Part shown: one piece after another, positions 4,382 through 58,593 of the stretch
Position numbering within the stretch: position 1 is the stretch's first letter
How the letters are laid out: every line of letters begins with the position of its first letter
Source: Patescibacteria group bacterium
Lineage (GTDB): Bacteria; Patescibacteriota; Minisyncoccia; Minisyncoccales; UBA5738
DNA: 64,000 bases
Direction: 5' to 3'
NCBI GenBank assembly: GCA_022710775.1
Contig: JAKLGH010000004.1
Coordinates: forward strand, 9,277-73,276
Notes under the pieces: generated by a model
The model's input: only the letters and a program-made list of their open reading frames with translations
Database searches by the model: none
What the model was told of the DNA's origin: nothing
Program-made: the position numbers and the translations under genes

Positions 4382-5449
4382 ATGAAATTCCCAATTTTTA
4401 AAACCAAAATGGAAGGCAAGGACAAGACATTCAATTTAACCGATCCGGTGGAGCGCAACGACTATTTCCATTACAAGGTTGACGAAGAGATCGATAAGCT
4501 CAAAGATTATGTCAGGGAAAATTCTTTCATCGTTTATCTTTTAGGCAAAAAGAATTCCGGAAAGGGGACTTATTCCAAAATGTTTGCCGAGATAATTAAT
4601 CCCGAAAGGATTGACCATTTTTCCGTGGGCGATATGATCCGAGAGGTGAGCAAGGATATTCAGGACGGGACTAAGAAACAGGAAATCGAAGATTATTTGA
4701 AAAAAGAATACCGCGGCTGGGTACCGGCCGAGGATTTGATCAAAGCCATCGAGAACCGCGACACCAAAACGCTTCTTCCCACGGAACTGATATTGGCCTT
4801 GGTTAAGAGGGAAATCGCCAAACGGCCCAAGAAAACCATTTTCATCGACGGTTTTCCCCGGGAAATGGACCAGGTAAGCTATTCACTGTTTTTCCGGGAT
4901 TTGATCGGATTCCGCAACGACCAGGACGTGCTGGCATTCATTGATGTGCCGACCAACGTGATCGAAGAGCGAATCAAGTGGCGCCGGATCTGCCCGGTTT
5001 GCAACACTTCGCGCAGTATTAAGCTTTTGCCGACCGCCAAGATCGGCTACGACGAAGGCTCAAAAGAATTTTATTTGATTTGCGACAATCCAAAATGCCC
5101 GGGCCACAATACCCAAAAACTCGGTCCCAAAGAAGGCGACGAGCTCGGCATCGCTCCCTTGAAAGACCGCTTGGAGCTTGACCAAAAACTGATGGAAAAG
5201 GCCATGACGTTGTACGGCATTCCAAAAGTTTATTTGCGCAACGCCATTCCGGCTGAATTGGCCAAGGACTATGTCGACGACTACGAGCTGACCCCGGAAT
5301 TCGAATTTGCCTGGGACGGCAAAGAGGTGAAAACGACGCAAAAGCCCTGGACAGTCAAAGACGACGAGGGCGTCACTTCCCACAGCCTCATGGCCGCGCC
5401 GGTGGTTGTTTCTTTGATCAAACAGCTTGCCAGCGTGCTTGGATTATAA
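4382..5449 (+). CDS. Divergent adenylate-kinase-family protein with N- and C-terminal extensions
   Basis: 355 aa. P-loop GKKNSGKGT, DGFPR, and a zinc-lid-like CPVC...CDNPKCPG. Confidence 0.55.
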   Translation: MKFPIFKTKMEGKDKTFNLTDPVERNDYFHYKVDEEIDKLKDYVRENSFIVYLLGKKNSGKGTYSKMFAEIINPERIDHFSVGDMIREVSKDIQDGTKKQEIEDYLKKEYRGWVPAEDLIKAIENRDTKTLLPTELILALVKREIAKRPKKTIFIDGFPREMDQVSYSLFFRDLIGFRNDQDVLAFIDVPTNVIEERIKWRRICPVCNTSRSIKLLPTAKIGYDEGSKEFYLICDNPKCPGHNTQKLGPKEGDELGIAPLKDRLELDQKLMEKAMTLYGIPKVYLRNAIPAELAKDYVDDYELTPEFEFAWDGKEVKTTQKPWTVKDDEGVTSHSLMAAPVVVSLIKQLASVLGL

Positions 5450-7691: not shown

Positions 7692-7718
7692 TAATGGTCT
7701 CATTTTAAGCCTTTTTTT

Positions 7719-7789
7719 CGCGAATCGGGATGGTGGAAAAAGCGCCGAAAGAGACATGCTGAAAAAAACGGGCAACTTCGGCAGCGGGG
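7719..7789 (+). repeat. Promoter-upstream repeat element, copy a (core CGGCAGCGGG at 7779-7788)
   Basis: cgcgaatcggg...aaagagacatgctg...gcaacttcggcagcgggg. Alignable by eye to the copy at 31143-31216. The core is shared with copies at 46987 and 50925. Confidence 0.6.
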
Positions 7790-7796
7790 CGGCGTG

Positions 7797-7825
7797 TTGA
7801 CATTCTTTCTTTTTTTTGATACATT
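7797..7825 (+). promoter_or_regulatory. Promoter of the rpsL-rpsG-fusA cluster
   Basis: TTGACA (7797-7802), 17 nt, TACATT with an upstream TG (extended -10). Confidence 0.5.
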
Positions 7826-8880: not shown

Positions 8881-9014
8881 CCAGGCCGCGTTAAATGCGG
8901 TTAATGAAACCAAGGATCCAAAGCGTAAGCCTATCAGTCTAGCGCTGCAAAATTATTGAACTTCGAATTTAAAGAACGAATAACCGCAATTATTCCTATA
9001 AATACTATAAATAT

Positions 9015-29320: not shown

Positions 29321-31093
29321 ATGTATCCTGATAAACAAATGACATCAAAAGACCTTCGTAAAAATTTCTTGGATTATTTCGCGAAACGGGGACACAAGAT
29401 AGTGCCGTCTTCGTCTTTGGTCACAAACGATCCAAGCGTTTTGTTCGCGACGGCCGGCATGCAGCAGTTCAAGCCGTATTATCTGGGCCAGGAGTCGCCA
29501 TACGGTTTGAATGTGGCGAGCTGCCAGAAATGCGTCCGGACTTCGGATATCGATGAAGTCGGAGATCACAGCCATCTGACTTTTTTCGAGATGCTTGGTA
29601 ATTTTTCTTTCGGAGGATACGGCTCAAACTTCAAAGAGGAAGCGATAAAGCTGGCTTACAATTTTATTTTCGCAGAACTGAAATTGCCCCTCCAGGACTC
29701 TTTTTTCACGGTATTCGAGGGAGATGCCGTTGTACCGGCGGATAAAGAATCTGAAGCCATCTGGACTCGAATGGCGGGCAATAGGGCAACGATCCAGCGT
29801 TTCGGCCGGGCTGATAATTTTTGGGGGCCCACCGGGGAATTCGGGCCTTGCGGTCCGACTACGGAAATCCATTACCGGAACACGGAAATCTGGAACATCG
29901 TCTTCAACGAGTATTACCAGGACAAGGACAAGTCTTTGAAACCGCTGCCAAAAAAAGGCATTGATACGGGTATGGGTTTTGAGCGCCTTTTAATGATGGT
30001 TCAGGATAAGCAAACGGTTTATGACACCGATTTGTTTGTGCCGATCATGGAAAAGATACCCGGTACCGACCTGAAGGCGAGAAGAATAGTGGCCGATCAC
30101 ATTAAAAGCGCGGTTTTTCTGATAAGCGACGGCGTTTTGCCTTCCAATCTGGAAAGAGGCTATGTTCTACGGCGTATTTTAAGGAGGGCGATCCGGTATG
30201 GACGGATTTTAGGCCTGACCGGCGATTTTTTGATGCCATTGGCCCAAACGGTAATCTCGATATACCGGGAGGCGTATCTTGACCTAGCCGTCAATGAAGA
30301 CGGCATTCTGACCGCCATTCATGCCGAACAGGAAAAATTCGATAGAGTTATTGATGAAGGGTTACGGGAAGTCAAAGCGCTGGAAAAAGTTTTAACGGAG
30401 GCTGGCGCGGCTTCGATAAAACCGGAGGGTCTTGCGGAGCTTTCGGCCAGCGATATTATGATCAACCGTCTTTTTGATCTTTACCAAAGCAAGGGAATGC
30501 CGCTGGAGCTTGTTTTTGAAGAATTCGACAATGACTCGGTGAAATGCGATAAAGCCGCAATCCAGGCAAGATTTAATGAAAAACTGAAACATCATCAAGA
30601 GATTTCCCGCGCCGGCGCCGAAAAAAAATTCGGGGGCATCGGCGGAACCGCGACCGAGGAAGCGAAAAAATTACATACTGCCGCCCATCTTCTGCATGCG
30701 GCATTAAGAAGAGTGCTGGGAACGCATGTCAAACAAATGGGTTCCGATATCACTTCGGAGCGTTTGCGCTTTGATTTTTCCCATCCGGCAAAAATGACAG
30801 CCGGGGAACTTGCCAAGGTTGAAGACCTGGTTAATTATGCGATCAAAGACAATATCCCGGTCATAAAGGAATTAATGTCCTATGAGGAAGCGATTGCCGG
30901 AGGGGCGCTGGCTTTTTTTAAGGAAAAATATCCCGCCCAGGTTAATGTTTATACCATTAAGGATTATTCCAAAGAGATTTGCGCCGGCCCTCATGCGGAA
31001 CGGACAGGGAGCCTGGGACAATTCCGGATTGTAAAAGAAGAATCATCGGGTGCCGGCGTGAGGCGGATCAAAGCGGTTTTGTCGCCCCGATGA
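29321..31093 (+). CDS. alaS: Alanine--tRNA ligase, short form (no C-Ala domain)
   Basis: TSKDLRKNFLDYFAKRGH N-terminus. Editing-domain HTAAHLLH and CAGPH motifs. Ends just after the editing domain. ATG at 29321 or 29339; the track start 29255 runs through the inverted repeat. Confidence 0.85.
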   Translation: MYPDKQMTSKDLRKNFLDYFAKRGHKIVPSSSLVTNDPSVLFATAGMQQFKPYYLGQESPYGLNVASCQKCVRTSDIDEVGDHSHLTFFEMLGNFSFGGYGSNFKEEAIKLAYNFIFAELKLPLQDSFFTVFEGDAVVPADKESEAIWTRMAGNRATIQRFGRADNFWGPTGEFGPCGPTTEIHYRNTEIWNIVFNEYYQDKDKSLKPLPKKGIDTGMGFERLLMMVQDKQTVYDTDLFVPIMEKIPGTDLKARRIVADHIKSAVFLISDGVLPSNLERGYVLRRILRRAIRYGRILGLTGDFLMPLAQTVISIYREAYLDLAVNEDGILTAIHAEQEKFDRVIDEGLREVKALEKVLTEAGAASIKPEGLAELSASDIMINRLFDLYQSKGMPLELVFEEFDNDSVKCDKAAIQARFNEKLKHHQEISRAGAEKKFGGIGGTATEEAKKLHTAAHLLHAALRRVLGTHVKQMGSDITSERLRFDFSHPAKMTAGELAKVEDLVNYAIKDNIPVIKELMSYEEAIAGGALAFFKEKYPAQVNVYTIKDYSKEICAGPHAERTGSLGQFRIVKEESSGAGVRRIKAVLSPR

Positions 31094-31142
31094 CGGAATT
31101 GAAACCGGCTTTTTGGCCTAGTCTCAATTTAAACCTTTTTCT

Positions 31143-31216
31143 CTGCGAAACGGAAATTTGGAACGGAGCAGCAAAAGAGACATGCTGCCAAAGGCAAGGC
31201 AACGTCGGCAGCGGGT
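31143..31216 (+). repeat. Promoter-upstream repeat element, copy b (core CGGCAGCGGG at 31206-31215)
   Basis: ctgcgaaacgg...aaagagacatgctg...gcaacgtcggcagcgggt. Followed by TGgTATAAT at 31240-31248. Confidence 0.6.
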
Positions 31217-31341
31217 CGTTAGGTATTAAACCCGTTTTTTGGTATAATTTAGCTAGCGTTCAATCGCGCGGCGGGGTTCTCTGCATTTTGCGGAAGAATC
31301 AAGCAAAAATCATTAAAGCGTAAGTCAACCATAATATCCAC

Positions 31342-32712
31342 ATGGTGAAAAAAGTATTAGATATCATACCTCCTAAAAAACAGGAAGCATCGAAAGAAAA
31401 TGCTTCGCGGATCGGTAAAGAAAAGGCGGAAATAAAGCCGGCTCCTAAACCGAAGATAACTTATATCCCGAAGAAAATTCCCGCTCCGGTTTTTAAGCCA
31501 AGCGGGATGAAATTGCCGTCAGGAATGGTTTTTTCGCCGAAAACGCTGCTTGCTTCGAAAATCGCGATAGTTTTAATTGTGGTTTTGGGCGCATTTATTT
31601 TCCTGGACAATAAACTGGCCAAAGCGACAATCACGATTTGGCCTGAAACCGAGGATTTAAGATCGGAAGTTCAGCTGACTGTAGATTCGTCGCTGAAAGA
31701 GCCGGACCTGGCCAAAAAAGCCATTCCGGGAACCGTGATCACGGCGGAAAAAACCTATTCCGACGATTTTGCGGCTACCGGAAAGAAAAACAGCCAGAAC
31801 AAAGCGCAAGGAACGGTTAAAATCTATAATAATTTTTCCATTGCCCAACGCTTGATTAAAGGTACGCGTTTGCAGGCTCCTCTGGAAAAATTTCAGCCTG
31901 CTTTATCGAAAGATGAAACTCCGTGGTTCCGGACGGCCGCTGATGCGACCATTGGCGCCAAAGCTTCCGCCGATGTTCTGGTCGTGGCTGACGGGACAGG
32001 GGAGAAATATAATATCGAACCGTCTATTTTTTCCATTCCCGGTTTAGTCGGGACGCCGCAATATACTTTTATCTACGGGCAGTCTTTTGAAAAATTCCGG
32101 GGCGGGGAAAAAGGCGCTTTACCCGAAATCAAACAGGAAGATCTCGACGGGGCGAAAGACGCTTTAACCAAAAAAGCCGAAACCGAGATCAAAAAAGACA
32201 TGGAAATCATGGTTCCGGAAAACCACGTTCTGATCGCGGAAACCGTGAAGTTTGAGGTTTTGGACGCTTCGCCGGCCGCCGTTGCCGGGACCAATGTGGA
32301 AAAATTTACTTATCAAGTCAAAGTTAAAGCTACTGGCCTGGTTATTGATAAAAAAGAGCTCGACGCGATTGCCAAAGAACATCTTTTAAGCCAGGTCGAA
32401 GATAATTTCGGGATTTACGAAAAAAGTTTTTTTGTAAAATATACCTATGTTCCTTTTGCGGCATCAACGCCGCCTGTCTCAACCGGCGTATCGGTTGCCG
32501 ATATAAAAGTGGAAGCGGGCGCGCGTGTTTACCAGCCGATAGACGAAGTTTTCGTGAAGAAGGGCCTGGCTGAAAAGAAAGTAGAAGTGGCCAAGTTTTT
32601 TTTAATGAACCAATCCAAGGTTAAAAACATAGAAATGGATGTTTCTCCGTTCTGGCGGACAAATATTCCCAGGGACTTGGAGAAAATCCAAGTAAACATG
32701 AATTTCGATTGA
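31342..32712 (+). CDS. Hypothetical single-pass membrane protein (456 aa)
   Basis: K/P-rich N-terminus, one TM (IAIVLIVVLGAFIFL), and a large extracytoplasmic domain. No family recognised. Confidence 0.6.
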   Translation: MVKKVLDIIPPKKQEASKENASRIGKEKAEIKPAPKPKITYIPKKIPAPVFKPSGMKLPSGMVFSPKTLLASKIAIVLIVVLGAFIFLDNKLAKATITIWPETEDLRSEVQLTVDSSLKEPDLAKKAIPGTVITAEKTYSDDFAATGKKNSQNKAQGTVKIYNNFSIAQRLIKGTRLQAPLEKFQPALSKDETPWFRTAADATIGAKASADVLVVADGTGEKYNIEPSIFSIPGLVGTPQYTFIYGQSFEKFRGGEKGALPEIKQEDLDGAKDALTKKAETEIKKDMEIMVPENHVLIAETVKFEVLDASPAAVAGTNVEKFTYQVKVKATGLVIDKKELDAIAKEHLLSQVEDNFGIYEKSFFVKYTYVPFAASTPPVSTGVSVADIKVEAGARVYQPIDEVFVKKGLAEKKVEVAKFFLMNQSKVKNIEMDVSPFWRTNIPRDLEKIQVNMNFD

Positions 32713-32825: not shown

Positions 32826-32924
32826 AAGAAATTGTTTAATCTTTAGTTTTTAACTTAGGCCAAAACGCGGCAAAAGGCTGGCGGGCGGCAGAAAACATAA
32901 GGATTGCAACCGAAGGCCGTTTAC

Positions 32925-33143
32925 ATGTCAAACAAAAAAATATTGAGATTCCAAGGGCAAGTTTACGAATCTTTGCCTGATGCCAACTTTCGAGTGAGGC
33001 TGTCTGACGGGCGGGAATTATTGTGCCACTTGGCTGGAAAGCTGCGGATGTACCGGATTAAGATCCTGCCAGGCGATACGGTCACAGTTGAAATGAGCCC
33101 GTACGACGAAAAAAGGGGAAGAATAGTTTATCGAGGAAGATAA
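32925..33143 (+). CDS. infA: Translation initiation factor IF-1
   Basis: 72 aa from the in-frame ATG at 32925. S1-like sequence [25 protein letters not shown]. Confidence 0.9.
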
Positions 33144-33153
33144 TAATTACCTT

Positions 33154-33270
33154 ATGAAGATAAGAGCATCAGTAAAAAAAATTTGCAAAGATTGCCAGAT
33201 TGTCAAAAGGCAAAGAAAGATATACGTAATTTGTAAAAAGAATCCCAAGCATAAGCAAAGGCAGGGTTAA
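33154..33270 (+). CDS. rpmJ: 50S ribosomal protein L36
   Basis: 38-aa ORF below the track cutoff: [38 protein letters not shown]. Confidence 0.9.
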
Positions 33271-36833: not shown

Positions 36834-37445
36834 ATGACTACTAAAGAAATTAAACCAAAGACCGCGCCGAAGGTGCGCAAGGCGCCTGCCAAGGTTAAAA
36901 AGGAAGCGGAAATAAAAGGACAAGAGCAAAAAGCAATGGCCGAAACGGAAGAAACAAAAAAAACAGCGATGGGGGAGAAGGTTTCTGCCGTCGAGCCTGT
37001 TTCTGCGGAAGAAACCGGCGACTTGGCTGATGAGAACGGAAAAACCCCTAAATCAAACCGCTACTATGAAGCTGTCGGCCGCCGCAAGACCGCAACCGCG
37101 CGCGTGAGGCTTTTTACCAGGGGCGACAAATCTTTTGTTATCAACGACAAACCGCTGGAAAAATATTTTCCGGGTGCGATTTTCAAATCCGTCATTGAAG
37201 CTCCTTTGGTGAAAATGAATATTGTAGATCGCTTCAAGATAACCGCTGTTGTCAAAGGGGGAGGGATCAATGCTCAGGCGGAAGCGATCAGGCACGGAAT
37301 TGCCCGGGCCTTGGTGATGTTTAATCTTGATTTTAAGAAACGCTTGAAAAAATCCGGATACCTGACGCGAGATTCAAGGATGAAGGAAAGGAAAAAGCCC
37401 GGTTTGCGCAAAGCCCGCCGAGCGCCCCAATGGGCCAAACGTTAG
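36834..37445 (+). CDS. rpsI: 30S ribosomal protein S9 (K/E/A-rich N-terminal extension of about 75 aa)
   Basis: C-terminal GGGINAQAEAIRHGIARAL...KARRAPQWAKR. In-frame ATG at 36834. Confidence 0.9.
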   Translation: MTTKEIKPKTAPKVRKAPAKVKKEAEIKGQEQKAMAETEETKKTAMGEKVSAVEPVSAEETGDLADENGKTPKSNRYYEAVGRRKTATARVRLFTRGDKSFVINDKPLEKYFPGAIFKSVIEAPLVKMNIVDRFKITAVVKGGGINAQAEAIRHGIARALVMFNLDFKKRLKKSGYLTRDSRMKERKKPGLRKARRAPQWAKR

Positions 37446-37575
37446 CGAACGTTTGGTACTGAGCCCAGCAGGGCGAATGTGCCGAAAACAGCGAACGTTT
37501 GGTACTGAGCCCAGCAGGGCGAATGTGCCGAAAACAGCGAACGTCTGGTACTGAGCCCAGCAGGGCGAATGTGCC
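37444..37575 (+). repeat. Tandem direct repeat, 3 x 46 nt (third copy truncated or diverged)
   Basis: Units start at 37444, 37490 and 37536: agcgaacgtttggtactgagcccagcagggcgaatgtgccgaaaac. Each can fold as GGUAC-UGA-GCCC-AGCA-GGGC-GAAU-GUGCC. Confidence 0.85.
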
Positions 37576-37595
37576 AAGTGCTAATTTTAAATTAA

Positions 37596-37627
37596 AACCA
37601 CTCCGGAATACGGGGTGGTTTTGTTTT
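37596..37627 (+). terminator. Rho-independent terminator of the rplM-rpsI unit
   Basis: ccactccg-gaata-cggggtgg followed by TTTTGTTTT. Confidence 0.7.
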
Positions 37628-37920
37628 AATTTTTTACCGAAATTTTCTTTCGGTATCGCTGTTATCAATAAAAAATTAGTCGCATGCGCAACTAATCTTC
37701 GCTTGTCCAGCAATTGTTATCATCGGGGAAAGCGCCAAGCGCAATAGCCACAATGATCGCTAATATCAATATCGCTATTATTCCATAAGCGAACCACATC
37801 GATCCCTGATGAATGGCTCCTCCCAAAGCTAAAAGAACTGAAATAAATTCACCTCCCGCAATTTGGAGCGTACCACAATAGACTTAAAAATCGATTGTTA
37901 AAGTATTGCCGTTTTGCATT

Positions 37921-37946
37921 AAAAAAAACGGATGTTTTTCATCCGT
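37921..37946 (-). terminator. Rho-independent terminator (minus strand)
   Basis: Minus strand reads acggatg-aaaaa-catccgt followed by T8, 14 nt after the stop of the 128-aa ORF. Confidence 0.7.
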
Positions 37947-37959
37947 ATCGGGCTAGCGG

Positions 37960-38346
37960 TTATTTGTTCCAAAGATAGGTTCTGGCTTTAATGAGCAAAT
38001 TCGATATCAGTGCCGCGATCATTTCCCGCTTGTTTACGCGGAACGCTTTGTTCGCATCTTTGATCCAGCCGCCGCGGTTTAAGCGGACGTGGGTTTGCCA
38101 GTCGCTGTCGTATCTTGAGCGATAGTATTCCACGATTTTCCCGTCAAAAAAACTCTTGACAAACACCAATGATCCGGCAAAAACAATGTAAAGGATAGAC
38201 CCGCCTAAAAGCGCGTTAGGATTTTTAACCATCAGGAAAATTCCAAAAAGGACCATTCCGGCGAACAAAATATTCATTAGCTTTTTTGTCATTCTGTCGC
38301 ACGATTCAACGTAAAGCCGCAACAGGTTTAGCGCGCGATCGTCCAT
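37960..38346 (-). CDS. Hypothetical membrane protein (128 aa, 2 TM)
   Basis: GGAGG precedes the ATG. Has its own terminator. No family recognised. Confidence 0.55.
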   Translation of the reverse strand: MDDRALNLLRLYVESCDRMTKKLMNILFAGMVLFGIFLMVKNPNALLGGSILYIVFAGSLVFVKSFFDGKIVEYYRSRYDSDWQTHVRLNRGGWIKDANKAFRVNKREMIAALISNLLIKARTYLWNK

Positions 38347-38357
38347 GCTGTTCCTCC

Positions 38358-38399
38358 TTATAAACGAACTAAGCCTAGTTATAAACGAACTAAGCCCAG
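38358..38399 (-). repeat. Tandem 21-nt duplication abutting the Shine-Dalgarno of the 128-aa ORF
   Basis: ttataaacgaactaagcc(t/c)ag x2 on the plus strand. On the coding strand: ..ggcttagttcgtttataa x2, then ggaggaacagcATG. Confidence 0.8.
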
Positions 38400-38479
38400 T
38401 TTATTGAAAAGCGCTGAAAAATCAAGCAAGCGGGCGAGACTGGCCGGTTTTCACGAAAAAATGATGCCGTTTAAAAGCA

Positions 38480-38929
38480 TCATTTGGTCCATACCAGTAC
38501 CCTGTAGTCATTTAATCTGGTTCCGGTTTGGGGCTGGAAGGCTTCGCTTAGGCAGAGCGGCTGGATGCCGAGTTCTGTTTCTCGCCTGATCCAGGGGTCG
38601 GTTGGATGGAGTAAAAGCCTAGGTTGCCAGCCTTCTTTTTTTAGCCGGCGGTAACTGTTTTCGCCCTTAGTCCAAACCAAGGCTCGGCGGTCGTCAAGCC
38701 TTATCCCGGTTTTAGGGTCGAAGGCCTTTCCTACAAATACTTTCTGGCCGCCTAACTTTCTAATTTGTTCGATCCGGGGGTCGTTTTCATTGGCCAAGAA
38801 TTCCGGGGTCCAGCCTAGCCTCTGAAGCCGTTGGAATTCGCTCTCGCCGATCTTTGGCGCTGTTCTTCTCGCGTTGCCCTGGGCTTTTGATCCCAGGTTA
38901 TGCAATATTCTCCCTACCATTATTACCAC
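38480..38929 (-). CDS. Hypothetical soluble protein (149 aa) built from two homologous repeats of about 55 aa
   Basis: Repeat 1 is LGWTPEFL..DPRI...FDPKTGIRLDDRRALVWTK. Repeat 2 is EGWQPRLL..DPWI...FQPQTGTRLNDYRVLVWTK. Has its own promoter and terminator. Confidence 0.6.
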   Translation of the reverse strand: MVIMVGRILHNLGSKAQGNARRTAPKIGESEFQRLQRLGWTPEFLANENDPRIEQIRKLGGQKVFVGKAFDPKTGIRLDDRRALVWTKGENSYRRLKKEGWQPRLLLHPTDPWIRRETELGIQPLCLSEAFQPQTGTRLNDYRVLVWTK

Positions 38930-38948
38930 TCACCAAATTTATTATAAT

Positions 38949-38976
38949 TATTATAACAGAAATATAATTTATGTCA
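38949..38976 (-). promoter_or_regulatory. Sigma70-like promoter of the 149-aa ORF
   Basis: Minus strand: TTGACA, 16 nt, TATAAT. Confidence 0.55.
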
Positions 38977-39023
38977 AGGCGCAAAAGGACAAAAAAAGCG
39001 ATGGGTCATCGCTTGTATTAAAA

Positions 39024-39227
39024 TTACACTTGCCCGTCTTTTGAAATTGTTTGGTTTGCGGCGGGCAGTTTTAACTCGCGGAAAGCGATTATAACACACC
39101 CTCCCAGCTGTATGTAAAGCGCCCAAAAACCGAAACTGTCAGGCAGAAAACCCAGACCATAGATGATGAATTCCGCCAGGAGAATTCCTGAAACAATGCC
39201 GATGAACAGTGCCGAACGGTCGTTCAT
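39024..39227 (-). CDS. Small membrane protein (67 aa, 2 TM)
   Basis: Start overlaps the stop of the upstream 65-aa ORF (ATGA-type overlap). A hairpin plus T-run lies downstream. Confidence 0.45.
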   Translation of the reverse strand: MNDRSALFIGIVSGILLAEFIIYGLGFLPDSFGFWALYIQLGGCVIIAFRELKLPAANQTISKDGQV

Positions 39228-39421
39228 ATCAGCCTCCCGGCCGGGATTACTGCTGTTTTTCGTTCACAATGGAACACCAATGCCGGAAAAGCCGCCAGCT
39301 GGAAAATTAGCATAAAAATGACGGAACCGTCGTTTAGAGGGATTCCAGCTACGAGCAATAAAATCGTCTCTGCGATAACTCCGTAAAGCGTACCTAATAT
39401 TACCCATATGATAAAGTTCAT
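39224..39421 (-). CDS. Small membrane protein (65 aa, 2 TM)
   Basis: Translationally coupled to the 67-aa ORF. TTGACT-17-TAAATA lies upstream on the minus strand. Confidence 0.45.
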   Translation of the reverse strand: MNFIIWVILGTLYGVIAETILLLVAGIPLNDGSVIFMLIFQLAAFPALVFHCERKTAVIPAGRLI

Positions 39422-46813: not shown

Positions 46814-46960
46814 TGATATCTTTTAAATATTTCTTTATTGTATCTTAATTATATCAATAATTCAAAAAACATTTTTTTATCGCCGAAATTGAAACCATGG
46901 TTTCATTCGCGATTTGTTTTGAATATTGTTTGAAAATGGGTTCTTGGGTGTTTATTGTTC

Positions 46961-46997
46961 TTAGCTCAAAGATTAGGCGGCAATATCGGCAGCGGGG
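46961..46997 (+). repeat. Promoter-upstream repeat element, copy c (core CGGCAGCGGG at 46987-46996)
   Basis: ttagctcaaagattaggcggcaatatcggcagcgggg. Followed by TGTATTATAAT at 47024-47034. Confidence 0.55.
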
Positions 46998-47080
46998 CAG
47001 CCTGGCAGATATTTTTCAAATATTGTATTATAATTCAAAGAGATCAATATCTTGAATTTAATTTAATCCAATCAAAAAAA

Positions 47081-49399: not shown

Positions 49400-49435
49400 T
49401 AAAGGGTTCCTTGATAATCGGAGCGGAGTGATATA

Positions 49436-49987
49436 TTGGCTGAAGTAAAAGGAGAAGAAGCCCCAAAAAAGACATCGAGCACGGCCAAGCCTGCGATGGG
49501 TTTGTTTGCCGCCATTTCTGATGGCCAAGGCCGGTTACTGGTTAAACGGAGGCAGCCTTGGGAATCTTTCCCCGGCGACTGGGATTTGCCGGGCGGCGCT
49601 TTCGATCTTGAAGAAGCGGAGCGGGCACTTGACGAAAGTGTCATTGGCAGGGCGCTGTGCCGGGAAGTTCTCGAGGAAACCGGGATCGATATAGAACCTT
49701 GGGATATCGAGAATATGCCGGCCATGTTTCCGGCTTTGCTAAAAGGCGGTAAAGATATCGGTTATCTGATAATCATCGGCCGATACGATGTAGAACCGAT
49801 ATTGGGCGAATGGCGGTATGTAAACACCAAGGAGCTTTTGGAACTCTGCGCCAATCCAAAAGGCAATCAGTTGGTGAGCGGTTTTGGGAAGCGAATGTGC
49901 CGTCTGTGCCTGAAGGCTTTAACCCTCAGTTCGGATGCCGAATCGGCCGCTTTGGCCAGAAGCAAGTTAGCCGAATGCTACGAGTAA
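49436..49987 (+). CDS. Nudix hydrolase
   Basis: Nudix box GGAFDLEE...ALCREVLEETGI. TTG start with GGAG 8 nt upstream; alternative ATG at 49496. Confidence 0.75.
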   Translation: MAEVKGEEAPKKTSSTAKPAMGLFAAISDGQGRLLVKRRQPWESFPGDWDLPGGAFDLEEAERALDESVIGRALCREVLEETGIDIEPWDIENMPAMFPALLKGGKDIGYLIIIGRYDVEPILGEWRYVNTKELLELCANPKGNQLVSGFGKRMCRLCLKALTLSSDAESAALARSKLAECYE

Positions 49988-50233
49988 GCAGCTAATAGCC
50001 GCGATTAAACGCGGTTTTTTATTACGACAGCGCCAAAGTCGATACAAACCCGGCAATAACGGTGAAATTAATCATAATGGAAGGCAAGAATAAAAAAATC
50101 AAGGAACTGTTAGCCAATCTTGACGAAACCCAAAAAAAAGATTAAGGAAAATCCAGTTCTTATAAATTGCCTAGATGCCGTAACAATACCGCGGCAAATA
50201 GCCGAAAAATGCGTTAAAAAGGAGGAATACGAA

Positions 50234-50785
50234 ATGGATGTTAGATATTGGAGAAAGACGCCGCCGGTGAGCCAGATTACGGTCTATACCATCATTGCCG
50301 GCGACGATGACCCGCAATCTCAAGGGAAAGAAAAGATTTTGTTGTTTCCCCAGAATCGGAAAAATGAACCGCTCTCGCTGGGAAACCTGAATGCGAGCAT
50401 CGAGCCGAAGGCTTTGAAAGATTCCTTGGTTTCGGCCAAACTGGGAAATTATGTCCAGCCGCTGATTGACCGGGCCGTGGTACCGTTGGTCATGCAATCG
50501 CTGGGAAAGCAACTATCGGCCAGCGCGATCGGCATCGATCCTTCGGAAACCACATTCCTGTGCGTGCCGTCCGGAGGTGCTCCGAAGCAGAGGACTTTTC
50601 ATTTAAAGATCGGCTGCGTTATTCCGATCGCGTTTTTGCCCTTTCCTCTCAACGTGTGGATGAACTCCGTGGATGAATTGCATTGGGTTAGGATCAGCAA
50701 TATCCTGGACGGTTACCGCCTTGATGGCGGCGAGGACGAAGAGTTTTTGGCGAAAACGGCGCTTCGCGCTTATTTAAGAGACTAG
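50234..50785 (+). CDS. Hypothetical protein (183 aa from the ATG with a strong RBS)
   Basis: AGGAGG lies 8 nt before ATG 50234. The track ORF (50120, TTG) is probably 5'-extended. No family recognised. Confidence 0.5.
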   Translation: MDVRYWRKTPPVSQITVYTIIAGDDDPQSQGKEKILLFPQNRKNEPLSLGNLNASIEPKALKDSLVSAKLGNYVQPLIDRAVVPLVMQSLGKQLSASAIGIDPSETTFLCVPSGGAPKQRTFHLKIGCVIPIAFLPFPLNVWMNSVDELHWVRISNILDGYRLDGGEDEEFLAKTALRAYLRD

Positions 50786-50897
50786 CTGTAACAATAGTCT
50801 CTTTTTTTTGCGCGGCTCCGGGCCGAAGTTGCAACCCCGCCTTTCGGCCTAGGCTCATTCGCTGTTTTTGTTTCCGTGGAATGGGGAGGGCGTAAAG

Positions 50898-50935
50898 GAG
50901 CAGGCTCCTAATAACGCACAATACCGGCAGCGGGA
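50898..50935 (+). repeat. Promoter-upstream repeat element, copy d (core CGGCAGCGGG at 50925-50934)
   Basis: gagcaggctcctaataacgcacaataccggcagcggga. Followed by TTGCCA...TAGTATAGA. Confidence 0.55.
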
Positions 50936-51065
50936 CGCTTTGCCATTTTTTTTTAAATAGTATAGAGTGAAATCGTGAAAGGGTTTAAGGCGCCGTGAAG
51001 GGAAAATCGTGAAGCTAGCGCCGGGTTTGGGATTTTTATCCAACATTCAAGATTACTAACATAAT

Positions 51066-57966: not shown

Positions 57967-58023
57967 GGAGGACAGCTGATTAAGTCCATTAAGCTTATTA
58001 AGCAAAAGCCAAGAACAATAAAC

Positions 58024-58045
58024 CCGCGTAAACCCGCGGTTTTTT
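58024..58045 (+). terminator. Rho-independent terminator after mreB paralog 2
   Basis: ccgcg-N6-cgcgg followed by TTTTTT. Confidence 0.6.
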
Positions 58046-58065: not shown

Positions 58066-58593
58066 TTATCCGTCATATCGTACAAAATTTTCTGCCGGCT
58101 GCCAACCGTAAGAGCTTCCCTGCAGGCCATAGATATGGACTTCTTTTACCGATACGTCCGGCAGGCCTTCGCAAACAAAGCATGGGTCGTTGCCGCACTC
58201 ATGTCCTATGGGCGCCAAGGAACTGTCTTTTCGCAGCGACGTTCTTTCTTCGATCACCCAGAAGACTTGTCCAACTTGAGGCTGTCGTCCGCGGGTTCCC
58301 GGATAGAGCTGGCCGATCTTGATGGCTTTAACTTTGTAATTTGTTTCTTTAACTGTTTTTTTGGCCGTTTGTATCGCGATTAAATAAATATTTGTCGCAA
58401 CGATTCCAGCCGCTTCGGCGTAGATGAATGGCCAAACCGCCATAGCCTTGAAGGGCCAGCCGAAAAACAAATAGACCAAAAGAACAATTGAGGGTAGAAT
58501 TATCCATCGATTTCTTGTCGTACCAATTATAAACCCTCCAACCGCTAGCAAGGCGCCGAACAGGAACGCGGCGATCATGGTAAATATTTCCAC
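58066..58593 (-). CDS. Hypothetical membrane protein (175 aa: 3 TM plus a Cys-containing C-terminal domain)
   Basis: GTG start preceded by AAGGAGG. Has its own TTGACA-17-TAATGT promoter. C-terminal GHECGNDPCFVCEG. Confidence 0.55.
   Translation of the reverse strand: MEIFTMIAAFLFGALLAVGGFIIGTTRNRWIILPSIVLLVYLFFGWPFKAMAVWPFIYAEAAGIVATNIYLIAIQTAKKTVKETNYKVKAIKIGQLYPGTRGRQPQVGQVFWVIEERTSLRKDSSLAPIGHECGNDPCFVCEGLPDVSVKEVHIYGLQGSSYGWQPAENFVRYDG

Follow-up and report, generated by a model that had tools for sequence, protein, structure and literature searches.

A probable MITE-like interspersed repeat lies upstream of four promoters in a Minisyncoccales-type bacterium

The stretch of DNA at 31094-31219, immediately downstream of alaS, is on balance probably a copy of a lineage-specific, MITE-like interspersed repeat that sits close to promoters and in a single orientation. 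The repeat is present in four copies in the window (the entire 64-kb stretch of DNA that was analysed), and comparison with orthologous loci shows that it was inserted in the common ancestor of the window population and a sister population, after their split from the next relatives. The window has a G+C content of 45.6%, carries a ribosomal-protein gene cluster, and derives from a Paceibacterota/Minisyncoccales-type CPR bacterium. Matches to it are found in contig DAOTDI010000004.1 (assembly GCA_035453565.1) and in several metagenomes from anaerobic digesters. For the tiny, dense genomes of CPR/Patescibacteria, there are hardly any descriptions of interspersed repeats or of promoter architecture, and a search of the literature on MITEs and repeat elements in CPR returned nothing relevant.

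Copies and structure of the repeat

The sequence CAAYNNCGGCAGCGGGNC has four matches in the window, all on the plus strand, against an expectation of zero; this extended block was absent from all 100 of 100 dinucleotide shuffles. The 10-mer CGGCAGCGGG occurs exactly four times, again always on the plus strand (at 7779, 31206, 46987 and 50925), while AAAGAGACATGCTG occurs exactly twice (7748-7761 and 31174-31187) and is common to copies a and b only. The original prediction—that these sequences recur as an element, with copy a the close partner of copy b—is borne out by the exact counts of two and four.

Alignment of the four regions places CAAYNNCGGCAGCGGGNC at the right end of a non-coding, four-copy repeat of about 105-128 nt (Table 1). 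Profiles built from the copies and searched with nhmmer recovered the same four sites in the window and none besides, and detected no further copy in 8 kb more of the source contig (~72 kb in total). Evolutionary and structural statements are based on the four paralogues and their four orthologues. Paralogous copies share 54-65% pairwise identity, versus 47-49% for shuffles. All four are intergenic, and each lies ahead of a plus-strand gene. No shared ORF is possible among the copies, which differ by indels; public gene callers have already annotated spurious ORFs over them.

Table 1. Positions of the repeat copies, the blocks of copy b and the neighbouring promoters in the window, with nucleotide identities to the sister population.
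Feature	Position	Strand	Sequence	Context	Identity to sister copy (flanks)
Copy a	7695-7796	+		lacks the left-end block; starts 3 nt past the M50 peptidase stop	95% (98.4%)
Copy b	31094-31219	+		full length, 126 nt, from the alaS stop (31091-31093) to the next -35; end-to-end match to the 8-sequence nhmmer profile	65% to b', L193 9755-9879 (about 95%)
Copy c	46882-47002	+		in a divergent intergenic region, ahead of the Band7 gene (47081)	99%, 1 difference in 121 nt (96.6%)
Copy d	50822-50938	+		between the upstream gene's terminator-like hairpin plus T8 (about 50777-50809) and the mreB promoter	about 83% (92.3%)
Left-end block, copy b	31094-31106	+	CGGAATTGAAACC	consensus GCCGAARTTGMAACC; first 10 nt form the inverted repeat with the right block	
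Block 2, copy b	31120-31128	+	AGTCTCAAT	family RGKYTCAWT; roughly complementary to the left-end block	
Inner block, copy b	31174-31187	+	AAAGAGACATGCTG	exact in copy a; AAAAGAGGATGCTC in the sister copy of d	
Right-end block, copy b	31200-31217	+	CAACGTCGGCAGCGGGTC		
Promoter after copy a	7797-7825	+	TTGACA-17-TACATT	rpsL	
Promoter after copy b	31220-31248	+	TAGGTA-17-(TGG)TATAAT	read from sequence; not part of the repeat	
Promoter after copy c	47002-47031	+	CTGGCA-18-TATTAT	Band7/SPFH gene	
Promoter after copy d	50940-50968	+	TTGCCA-17-TAGAGT	mreB	
Gene downstream of copy b	31342-32712	+		456-aa protein, no Pfam match; homologues limited to Paceibacterota/Minisyncoccales	

The alignment gives a consistent order of blocks: the left block GCCGAARTTGMAACC, a loop of 2-15 nt, RGKYTCAWT and a T-run, followed by GCGAA or GGAA, then GAGNCATGCTS, and finally the right block. 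The GAGNCATGCTS block is shared by copy a, copy b and d' (the sister copy of d); the right-end block is the sole block that is exact in all four copies. The spacing from GCT to the 10-mer is constant across copies, at 21-23 nt. The ends of the repeat form an imperfect 10-bp inverted repeat (GCCGAARTTG / CAAYNYCGGC), in which 77.5% of cells are complementary, versus 20-50% once the partners are slid; compensatory changes are not seen. On the right, the inverted repeat is subterminal: a conserved 8-10 nt, AGCGGGNC(R), lies beyond it. The original prediction had flagged 31143-31248 as the element. The unit instead runs from 31094 to 31219; the remainder of the flagged span (31220-31248) does hold a promoter, with the predicted extended -10 confirmed in place, but one that is separate and older.

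The interior of copy c (GGGTTCTTGGGTGTTTATTGTTCTTAGCT, 46938-46966) is 79% complementary to 58007-58035, just downstream of a minus-strand gene (58066-58593). The latter stretch adjoins a CCGCGGGTTTACGCGG hairpin, and its likeness to the copy c interior may be due to chance or to a shared terminator-like fragment.

It had also been proposed that copy b could act as an RNA or DNA hairpin, through the pairing of GCTGCC with GGCAGC. The second arm lies at 31207-31212 as given, while the first is at 31184-31189, one base off the predicted 31183-31188. The proposed 6-bp stem is complete in copy b only, the other copies keeping 3-4 bp of it (GCT/AGC). Single-sequence fold z-scores for the four copies range from -0.9 to +0.7, no better than shuffles. 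Covariation, the analysis suggested for telling an RNA structure from a DNA motif, likewise speaks against the former: RNAalifold on five copies returned -4.8 kcal/mol with a positive, and hence penalising, covariation term and with GCU/AGC alone kept throughout. Rfam searches of the window and of 31060-31345, at both gathering and permissive (E<=5) thresholds, gave tRNAs and noise only. Locally, the left block and block 2 could form a hairpin in copies b and c, and an alternative one is possible in d; no right-end hairpin is conserved among the copies.

A structured RNA or single-stranded DNA hairpin—whether a 3'-UTR stabiliser or terminator, a small RNA, or a leader—is very improbable as an explanation of the repeat. 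In its favour are the complete GCUGCC/GGCAGC stem of copy b, the hairpin of left block and block 2 followed by T-rich sequence in b and c, and the position of three copies directly 3' of the stop codon of a co-oriented gene. Set against these are the folding and covariation results above, and the complementarity of the ends, which without compensatory change has the look of terminal inverted repeats and not of an RNA helix. Further, divergent promoters flank copy c, which leaves it without a co-oriented gene upstream, and the gene upstream of site d has its own hairpin and T8; a role as a terminator or in the 3'-UTR is therefore not general. The conserved promoters are 3' of the repeat, so it falls outside any leader. 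Neither a covariation-supported structure nor a match to a curated family was found for the repeat, which forms no conserved RNA or DNA hairpin. Other candidates were set aside on sequence grounds: a sigma-54 or ECF-type promoter inside the repeat, an integron attC site, a diversity-generating retroelement (DGR), a DNA uptake sequence and a CRISPR repeat (ATTGAAAC-like).

Occupied and empty sites in relatives

Orthologous loci were retrieved via the 456-aa protein and the PEGA protein. In relatives whose neighbouring proteins are 67-86% identical, the promoters are kept at sites b, c and d and the repeat is absent. The expectation that the element would be conserved in relatives with the same gene order is thus contradicted at these three sites.

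Site b is empty in two loci, L013 (downstream protein 81% identical) and L011 (67%), which keep ...TAGGTATTAAgctCGTTTTTTGGTATAAT / ...TTTTTTGGTATAAT immediately 3' of the alaS stop. The site reads ...AAATAGGCCTAATC followed directly by TAGGTATTAAGCTCGTTTTTTGGTATAAT in L013, and ...TAGGCGTTAGCTATGTTTTTTGGTATAAT in L011; the promoter common to the window and these relatives is TAGGTATTAA...TTTTTTGGTATAAT. At site d, L200 and L201 read ...TTTTTTTGCCGCGTTCGGGGT followed directly by TTTGCCATTTTTTTTCAAATAGTATAGAGTG, with the flanks joining as ...CGGGGT and TTTGCCA, and the window carries 116-117 nt extra at the point of junction. At site c, the same two loci keep TGGCAGATATTTTTCAAATATTGTAT..., with unrelated sequence further upstream. 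No repeat copy was found with the nhmmer profile in ~66 kb of the empty-site relatives, and nhmmer detected no significant repeat remnants in L013 or L201. A 92-nt insertion with its left junction at GGCCTAATCT of L013 was considered and dropped: GGCCTAG(K)CTC belongs to the repeat. The start of the unit is GCCGAARTTG, as shown by site d and the other copies.

Since promoters b, c and d are present in relatives without the repeat, the repeat is an insertion beside pre-existing promoters. The promoter at site b has a weak -35 (TAGGTA, 31220-31225), a 17-nt T-rich spacer and an extended -10 (TGGTATAAT, 31240-31248), and was not called by a consensus scan because of the weak -35. The original prediction saw no good -35 here, and suggested that the element may substitute for one. 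Use of the repeat as a -35 substitute, or as an UP-like element of the downstream promoter, would fit the weak hexamer, the missing scan call and the abutment of repeat and hexamer. However, the same weak -35 and extended -10 occur in L013 and L011 without the repeat; copies a, c and d precede recognisable -35 hexamers (TTGACA, CTGGCA and TTGCCA); and the adjacent block, being rich in G+C, is the reverse of an UP element. We regard this explanation as extremely improbable. A part of the core promoter would be both needed by, and conserved with, the orthologous promoter; neither holds for the repeat or for its adjacent block CGGCAGCGGG. Promoter b is conserved in L193 (sister population), L013 and L011, repeat present or not. 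To judge by these sequences, it predates the repeat and would work without needing it.

The sister population, drawn from runs ERR7850082/84/85, has 92-98% nucleotide identity to the window and carries the repeat at the same four of four sites. The copies have diverged from their orthologues to very different degrees (Table 1), while four-fold sites differ by 10.7% between window and sister, both in alaS and in the gene downstream of b. The promoter and leader beside d are 100% identical to those of the sister, and those beside b are 96% identical. Summed over the four copies, the repeat seems to evolve ~3x faster than its mostly coding flanks, at a roughly neutral rate. These comparisons show that constraint on the repeat in place is weak or none, and that the repeat is dispensable for the adjoining promoters.

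Copy b resembles its orthologue b' (65%) no more closely than it does its paralogue d (65%). Between b and b', short conserved blocks alternate with unrelated-looking stretches. Given 65% identity to the orthologue against a four-fold divergence of 10.7%, drift by point mutation is insufficient to account for the difference, and replacement or gene conversion is suspected.

The insertion also remodelled the 3' end of alaS (window 31081-31093). The window protein ends ...AVLSPR; the sister product (L193 9740-9765) reads into the repeat and ends ...AVLSSQCRN; that of the repeat-free L013 ends ...AVLAQK.

Several other differences and small repeats were seen in the window and related loci. At 37444-37581, starting from the stop codon of rpsI (S9), a 46-nt unit, AGCGAACGTTTGGTACTGAGCCCAGCAGGGCGAATGTGCCGAAAAC, occurs three times in tandem (identities 100/100/89%). 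L193 16007-16134 aligns with window 37536-37660, which includes the last unit only; copy number seems variable. The 84-86% relatives carry a different small repeat, built on a CCGGGCTTGCCCGG-type hairpin; in L200 it is at 247-283, 4974-5010 and 8898-8934, on the reverse strand relative to the genes. The M50 peptidase, mreB and Band7 genes each have it between start codon and promoter; the copy in the leader of Band7 is within a ~110-nt G+C-rich insert that is missing from the window and L201. The CCGGGCTTGCCCGG repeat has no Rfam match. Small promoter-proximal repeats may be recurring in this clade. With regard to genes, the sister contigs L205 and L206 lack a NUDIX hydrolase gene (49436-49987) together with the sequence around it, and run straight from window position 49422 to 50111. 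Small, unknown minus-strand genes (128, 149 and 95 aa) at 37910-39236 are 83% identical to the sister, versus 93-96% around them. Finally, infA (IF-1-like, 79-aa ORF; 32904-33143) and rpmJ (L36, 38 aa; 33154-33270) are uncalled in the public gene lists of related loci.

Placement beside promoters and a possible regulatory role

At all four sites, 4-8 nt separate the end of the 10-mer from the -35 hexamer that follows, and the orientation is always the same. The space for such an insertion is small: in the empty-site relatives, ~8 nt is free at site b and ~14 nt at site d, and at the latter the insertion was placed at the -35 edge of the space. By a crude ORF map, the window contains ~7.3 kb of non-coding DNA; as a rough estimate, random insertion filtered by coding constraint alone would give the observed placement with p<=1e-4. 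The four-site placement points either to targeted integration at the upstream edge of promoters, or to retention because the G+C-rich block acts.

The second of these leads to the main rival of the mobile-repeat reading: a cis-regulatory module, which we consider possible but doubtful. A protein would recognise CGGCAGCGGG (perhaps together with GCTG ~21-23 bp upstream) and modulate the promoter from about -45, linking the rpsL operon, the 456-aa protein, the Band7 protein and mreB in one response. Several observations favour such a module: the 10-mer is exact in the four paralogues despite 35-46% overall divergence, its orientation and proximity to the -35 are uniform, the GCT-to-motif spacing is constant, the blocks kept between b and the diverged b' are those kept among paralogues, and copy c is nearly unchanged in the sister population. 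On the other side, relatives have the same promoters without the repeat. The 10-mer is altered in two of the four sister copies (b', CGGCAaCGGa, CGGCAACGGA; d', CGGCAGCGGa, CGGCAGCGGA), with the neighbouring promoters intact; its spacing from the -35 ranges over 4 nt, which shifts the helical phase; and no candidate regulator was identified.

The same observations bear on the favoured reading of a MITE-like repeat. The 99% conservation of copy c in the sister population counts against it, as does the closeness to the -35, which a functional promoter module would also show. Similarly, the intactness of the 10-mer in four otherwise divergent paralogues could reflect host-level selection, and not transposition competence.

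Searches for the repeat beyond the window used both patterns and alignment. Among at least 120 matches listed for a loose pattern in viral contigs, all were chance matches. A two-block pattern gave 50 matches in genome contigs; every one lay in an unrelated phylum, and nhmmer confirmed none of them. The source species was missing from these matches, although the pattern matches all four window copies. A stricter pattern gave eight chance matches in metagenome contigs, and this species' JGI contigs were not returned, although the pattern again matches four of four window copies. No Paceibacteria contig came back from either collection, so that both negatives carry little weight. Copies b and c had no blastn match in phage and plasmid collections.

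Mobility and comparison with known systems

Several features of the repeat are those of a MITE. It is short (well within ~500 bp) and has no coding capacity; it is dispersed and multicopy, with four copies in 64 kb and unrelated flanks; and it is present or absent at orthologous sites, with b, c and d empty in L013, L011, L200 and L201. The terminal inverted repeats, in turn, are imperfect, missing from copy a, and subterminal on the right. No target-site duplication was found on comparing the junctions with the empty sites b and d and the flanks of all copies, and no gene for a transposase or recombinase was found in the window or in the further 8 kb of its contig.

We propose that the repeat is MITE-like and non-autonomous, and would depend for its movement on an enzyme acting in trans, whose gene lies elsewhere. 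This enzyme would use the conserved ends (left GCCGAARTTGMAACC, right CAAYNYCGGCAGCGGGNC) as cis sites. Either that enzyme or strong selection would set the right end a few bases 5' of the -35, in one orientation, and the inserted copy would then be largely dispensable and drift. A more specific possibility, which we think rather unlikely, is a promoter-targeting CPR mobile element: the enzyme would recognise promoter DNA, or RNA polymerase bound to it, and integrate the repeat a few bases 5' of the -35, always in one orientation and without target duplication, and could thereby deliver the candidate protein-binding block CGGCAGCGGG to unrelated housekeeping promoters.

The absence of a target duplication and of a nearby transposase, together with copies that are few and old (54-65% identity), would also be in keeping with an intergenic cassette copied by local recombination or segmental duplication, with neither dedicated mobility nor function. 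This is nonetheless an improbable account: the copies are separated by 4-23 kb and have wholly unrelated surroundings, sites b and d show precise junctions, and the copies have inverted-repeat ends in common and occupy the same place with respect to four different promoters.

The series of empty, occupied and diverging occupied sites indicates that ~120-nt insertions are either tolerated at, or targeted to, the boundary between gene end and -35. Should placement prove targeted, the repeat would provide a bacterial counterpart to promoter-directed integration; should a regulator bind the block, it would exemplify the wiring of a regulon by a mobile repeat; failing both, it serves as a warning for annotation that the motif does not belong to the promoter.

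Among known systems, the repeat is readily compared with bacterial MITEs, such as the Correia elements of Neisseria, RUP of Streptococcus, and ERIC/IRU of enterobacteria. MITEs are often found beside promoters, and some (Correia) change expression. The repeat resembles them in being small (~120 nt), non-coding, intergenic and dispersed, in its ends, which form an imperfect inverted repeat, and in its presence or absence among close relatives. It differs in that it has no target duplication, a conserved 8-10 nt past the right inverted repeat, copies that are just 54-65% identical, and no known cognate transposase or autonomous parent; its -35-proximal, single-orientation placement at four of four sites is also tighter than MITEs described so far typically show.

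REP/BIME and IS200/IS605-derived elements are similar to the repeat in being extragenic and just past stop codons, in the absence of target duplication, and in having a local hairpin near one end. Unlike them, the repeat has no GTAG-type REP head, no conserved right-end hairpin and no conserved 4-5 nt left target (flanks ATGA, TATC and CCGG), and copy c lies between divergent promoters. Membership of the IS200/IS605/REP group would entail a subterminal hairpin at each end together with a conserved left target, a combination that the repeat does not display. Upstream activator sites and UP elements share with the repeat a location of about -40 to -55 from the start implied by the -10; unlike these, the block is G+C-rich and not A/T-rich, varies by 4 nt in its spacing to the -35, and is absent from orthologous promoters.

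IS900, IS901 and IS902 (IS110 family) insert between the ribosome-binding site and the start codon, in one orientation. They are full-length and recombinase-encoding, with a target 3' of the promoter, whereas the repeat is ~120 nt, non-coding and 5' of the -35. What they have in common with it is orientation-specific insertion, without target duplication, at a fixed spot relative to an expression signal.
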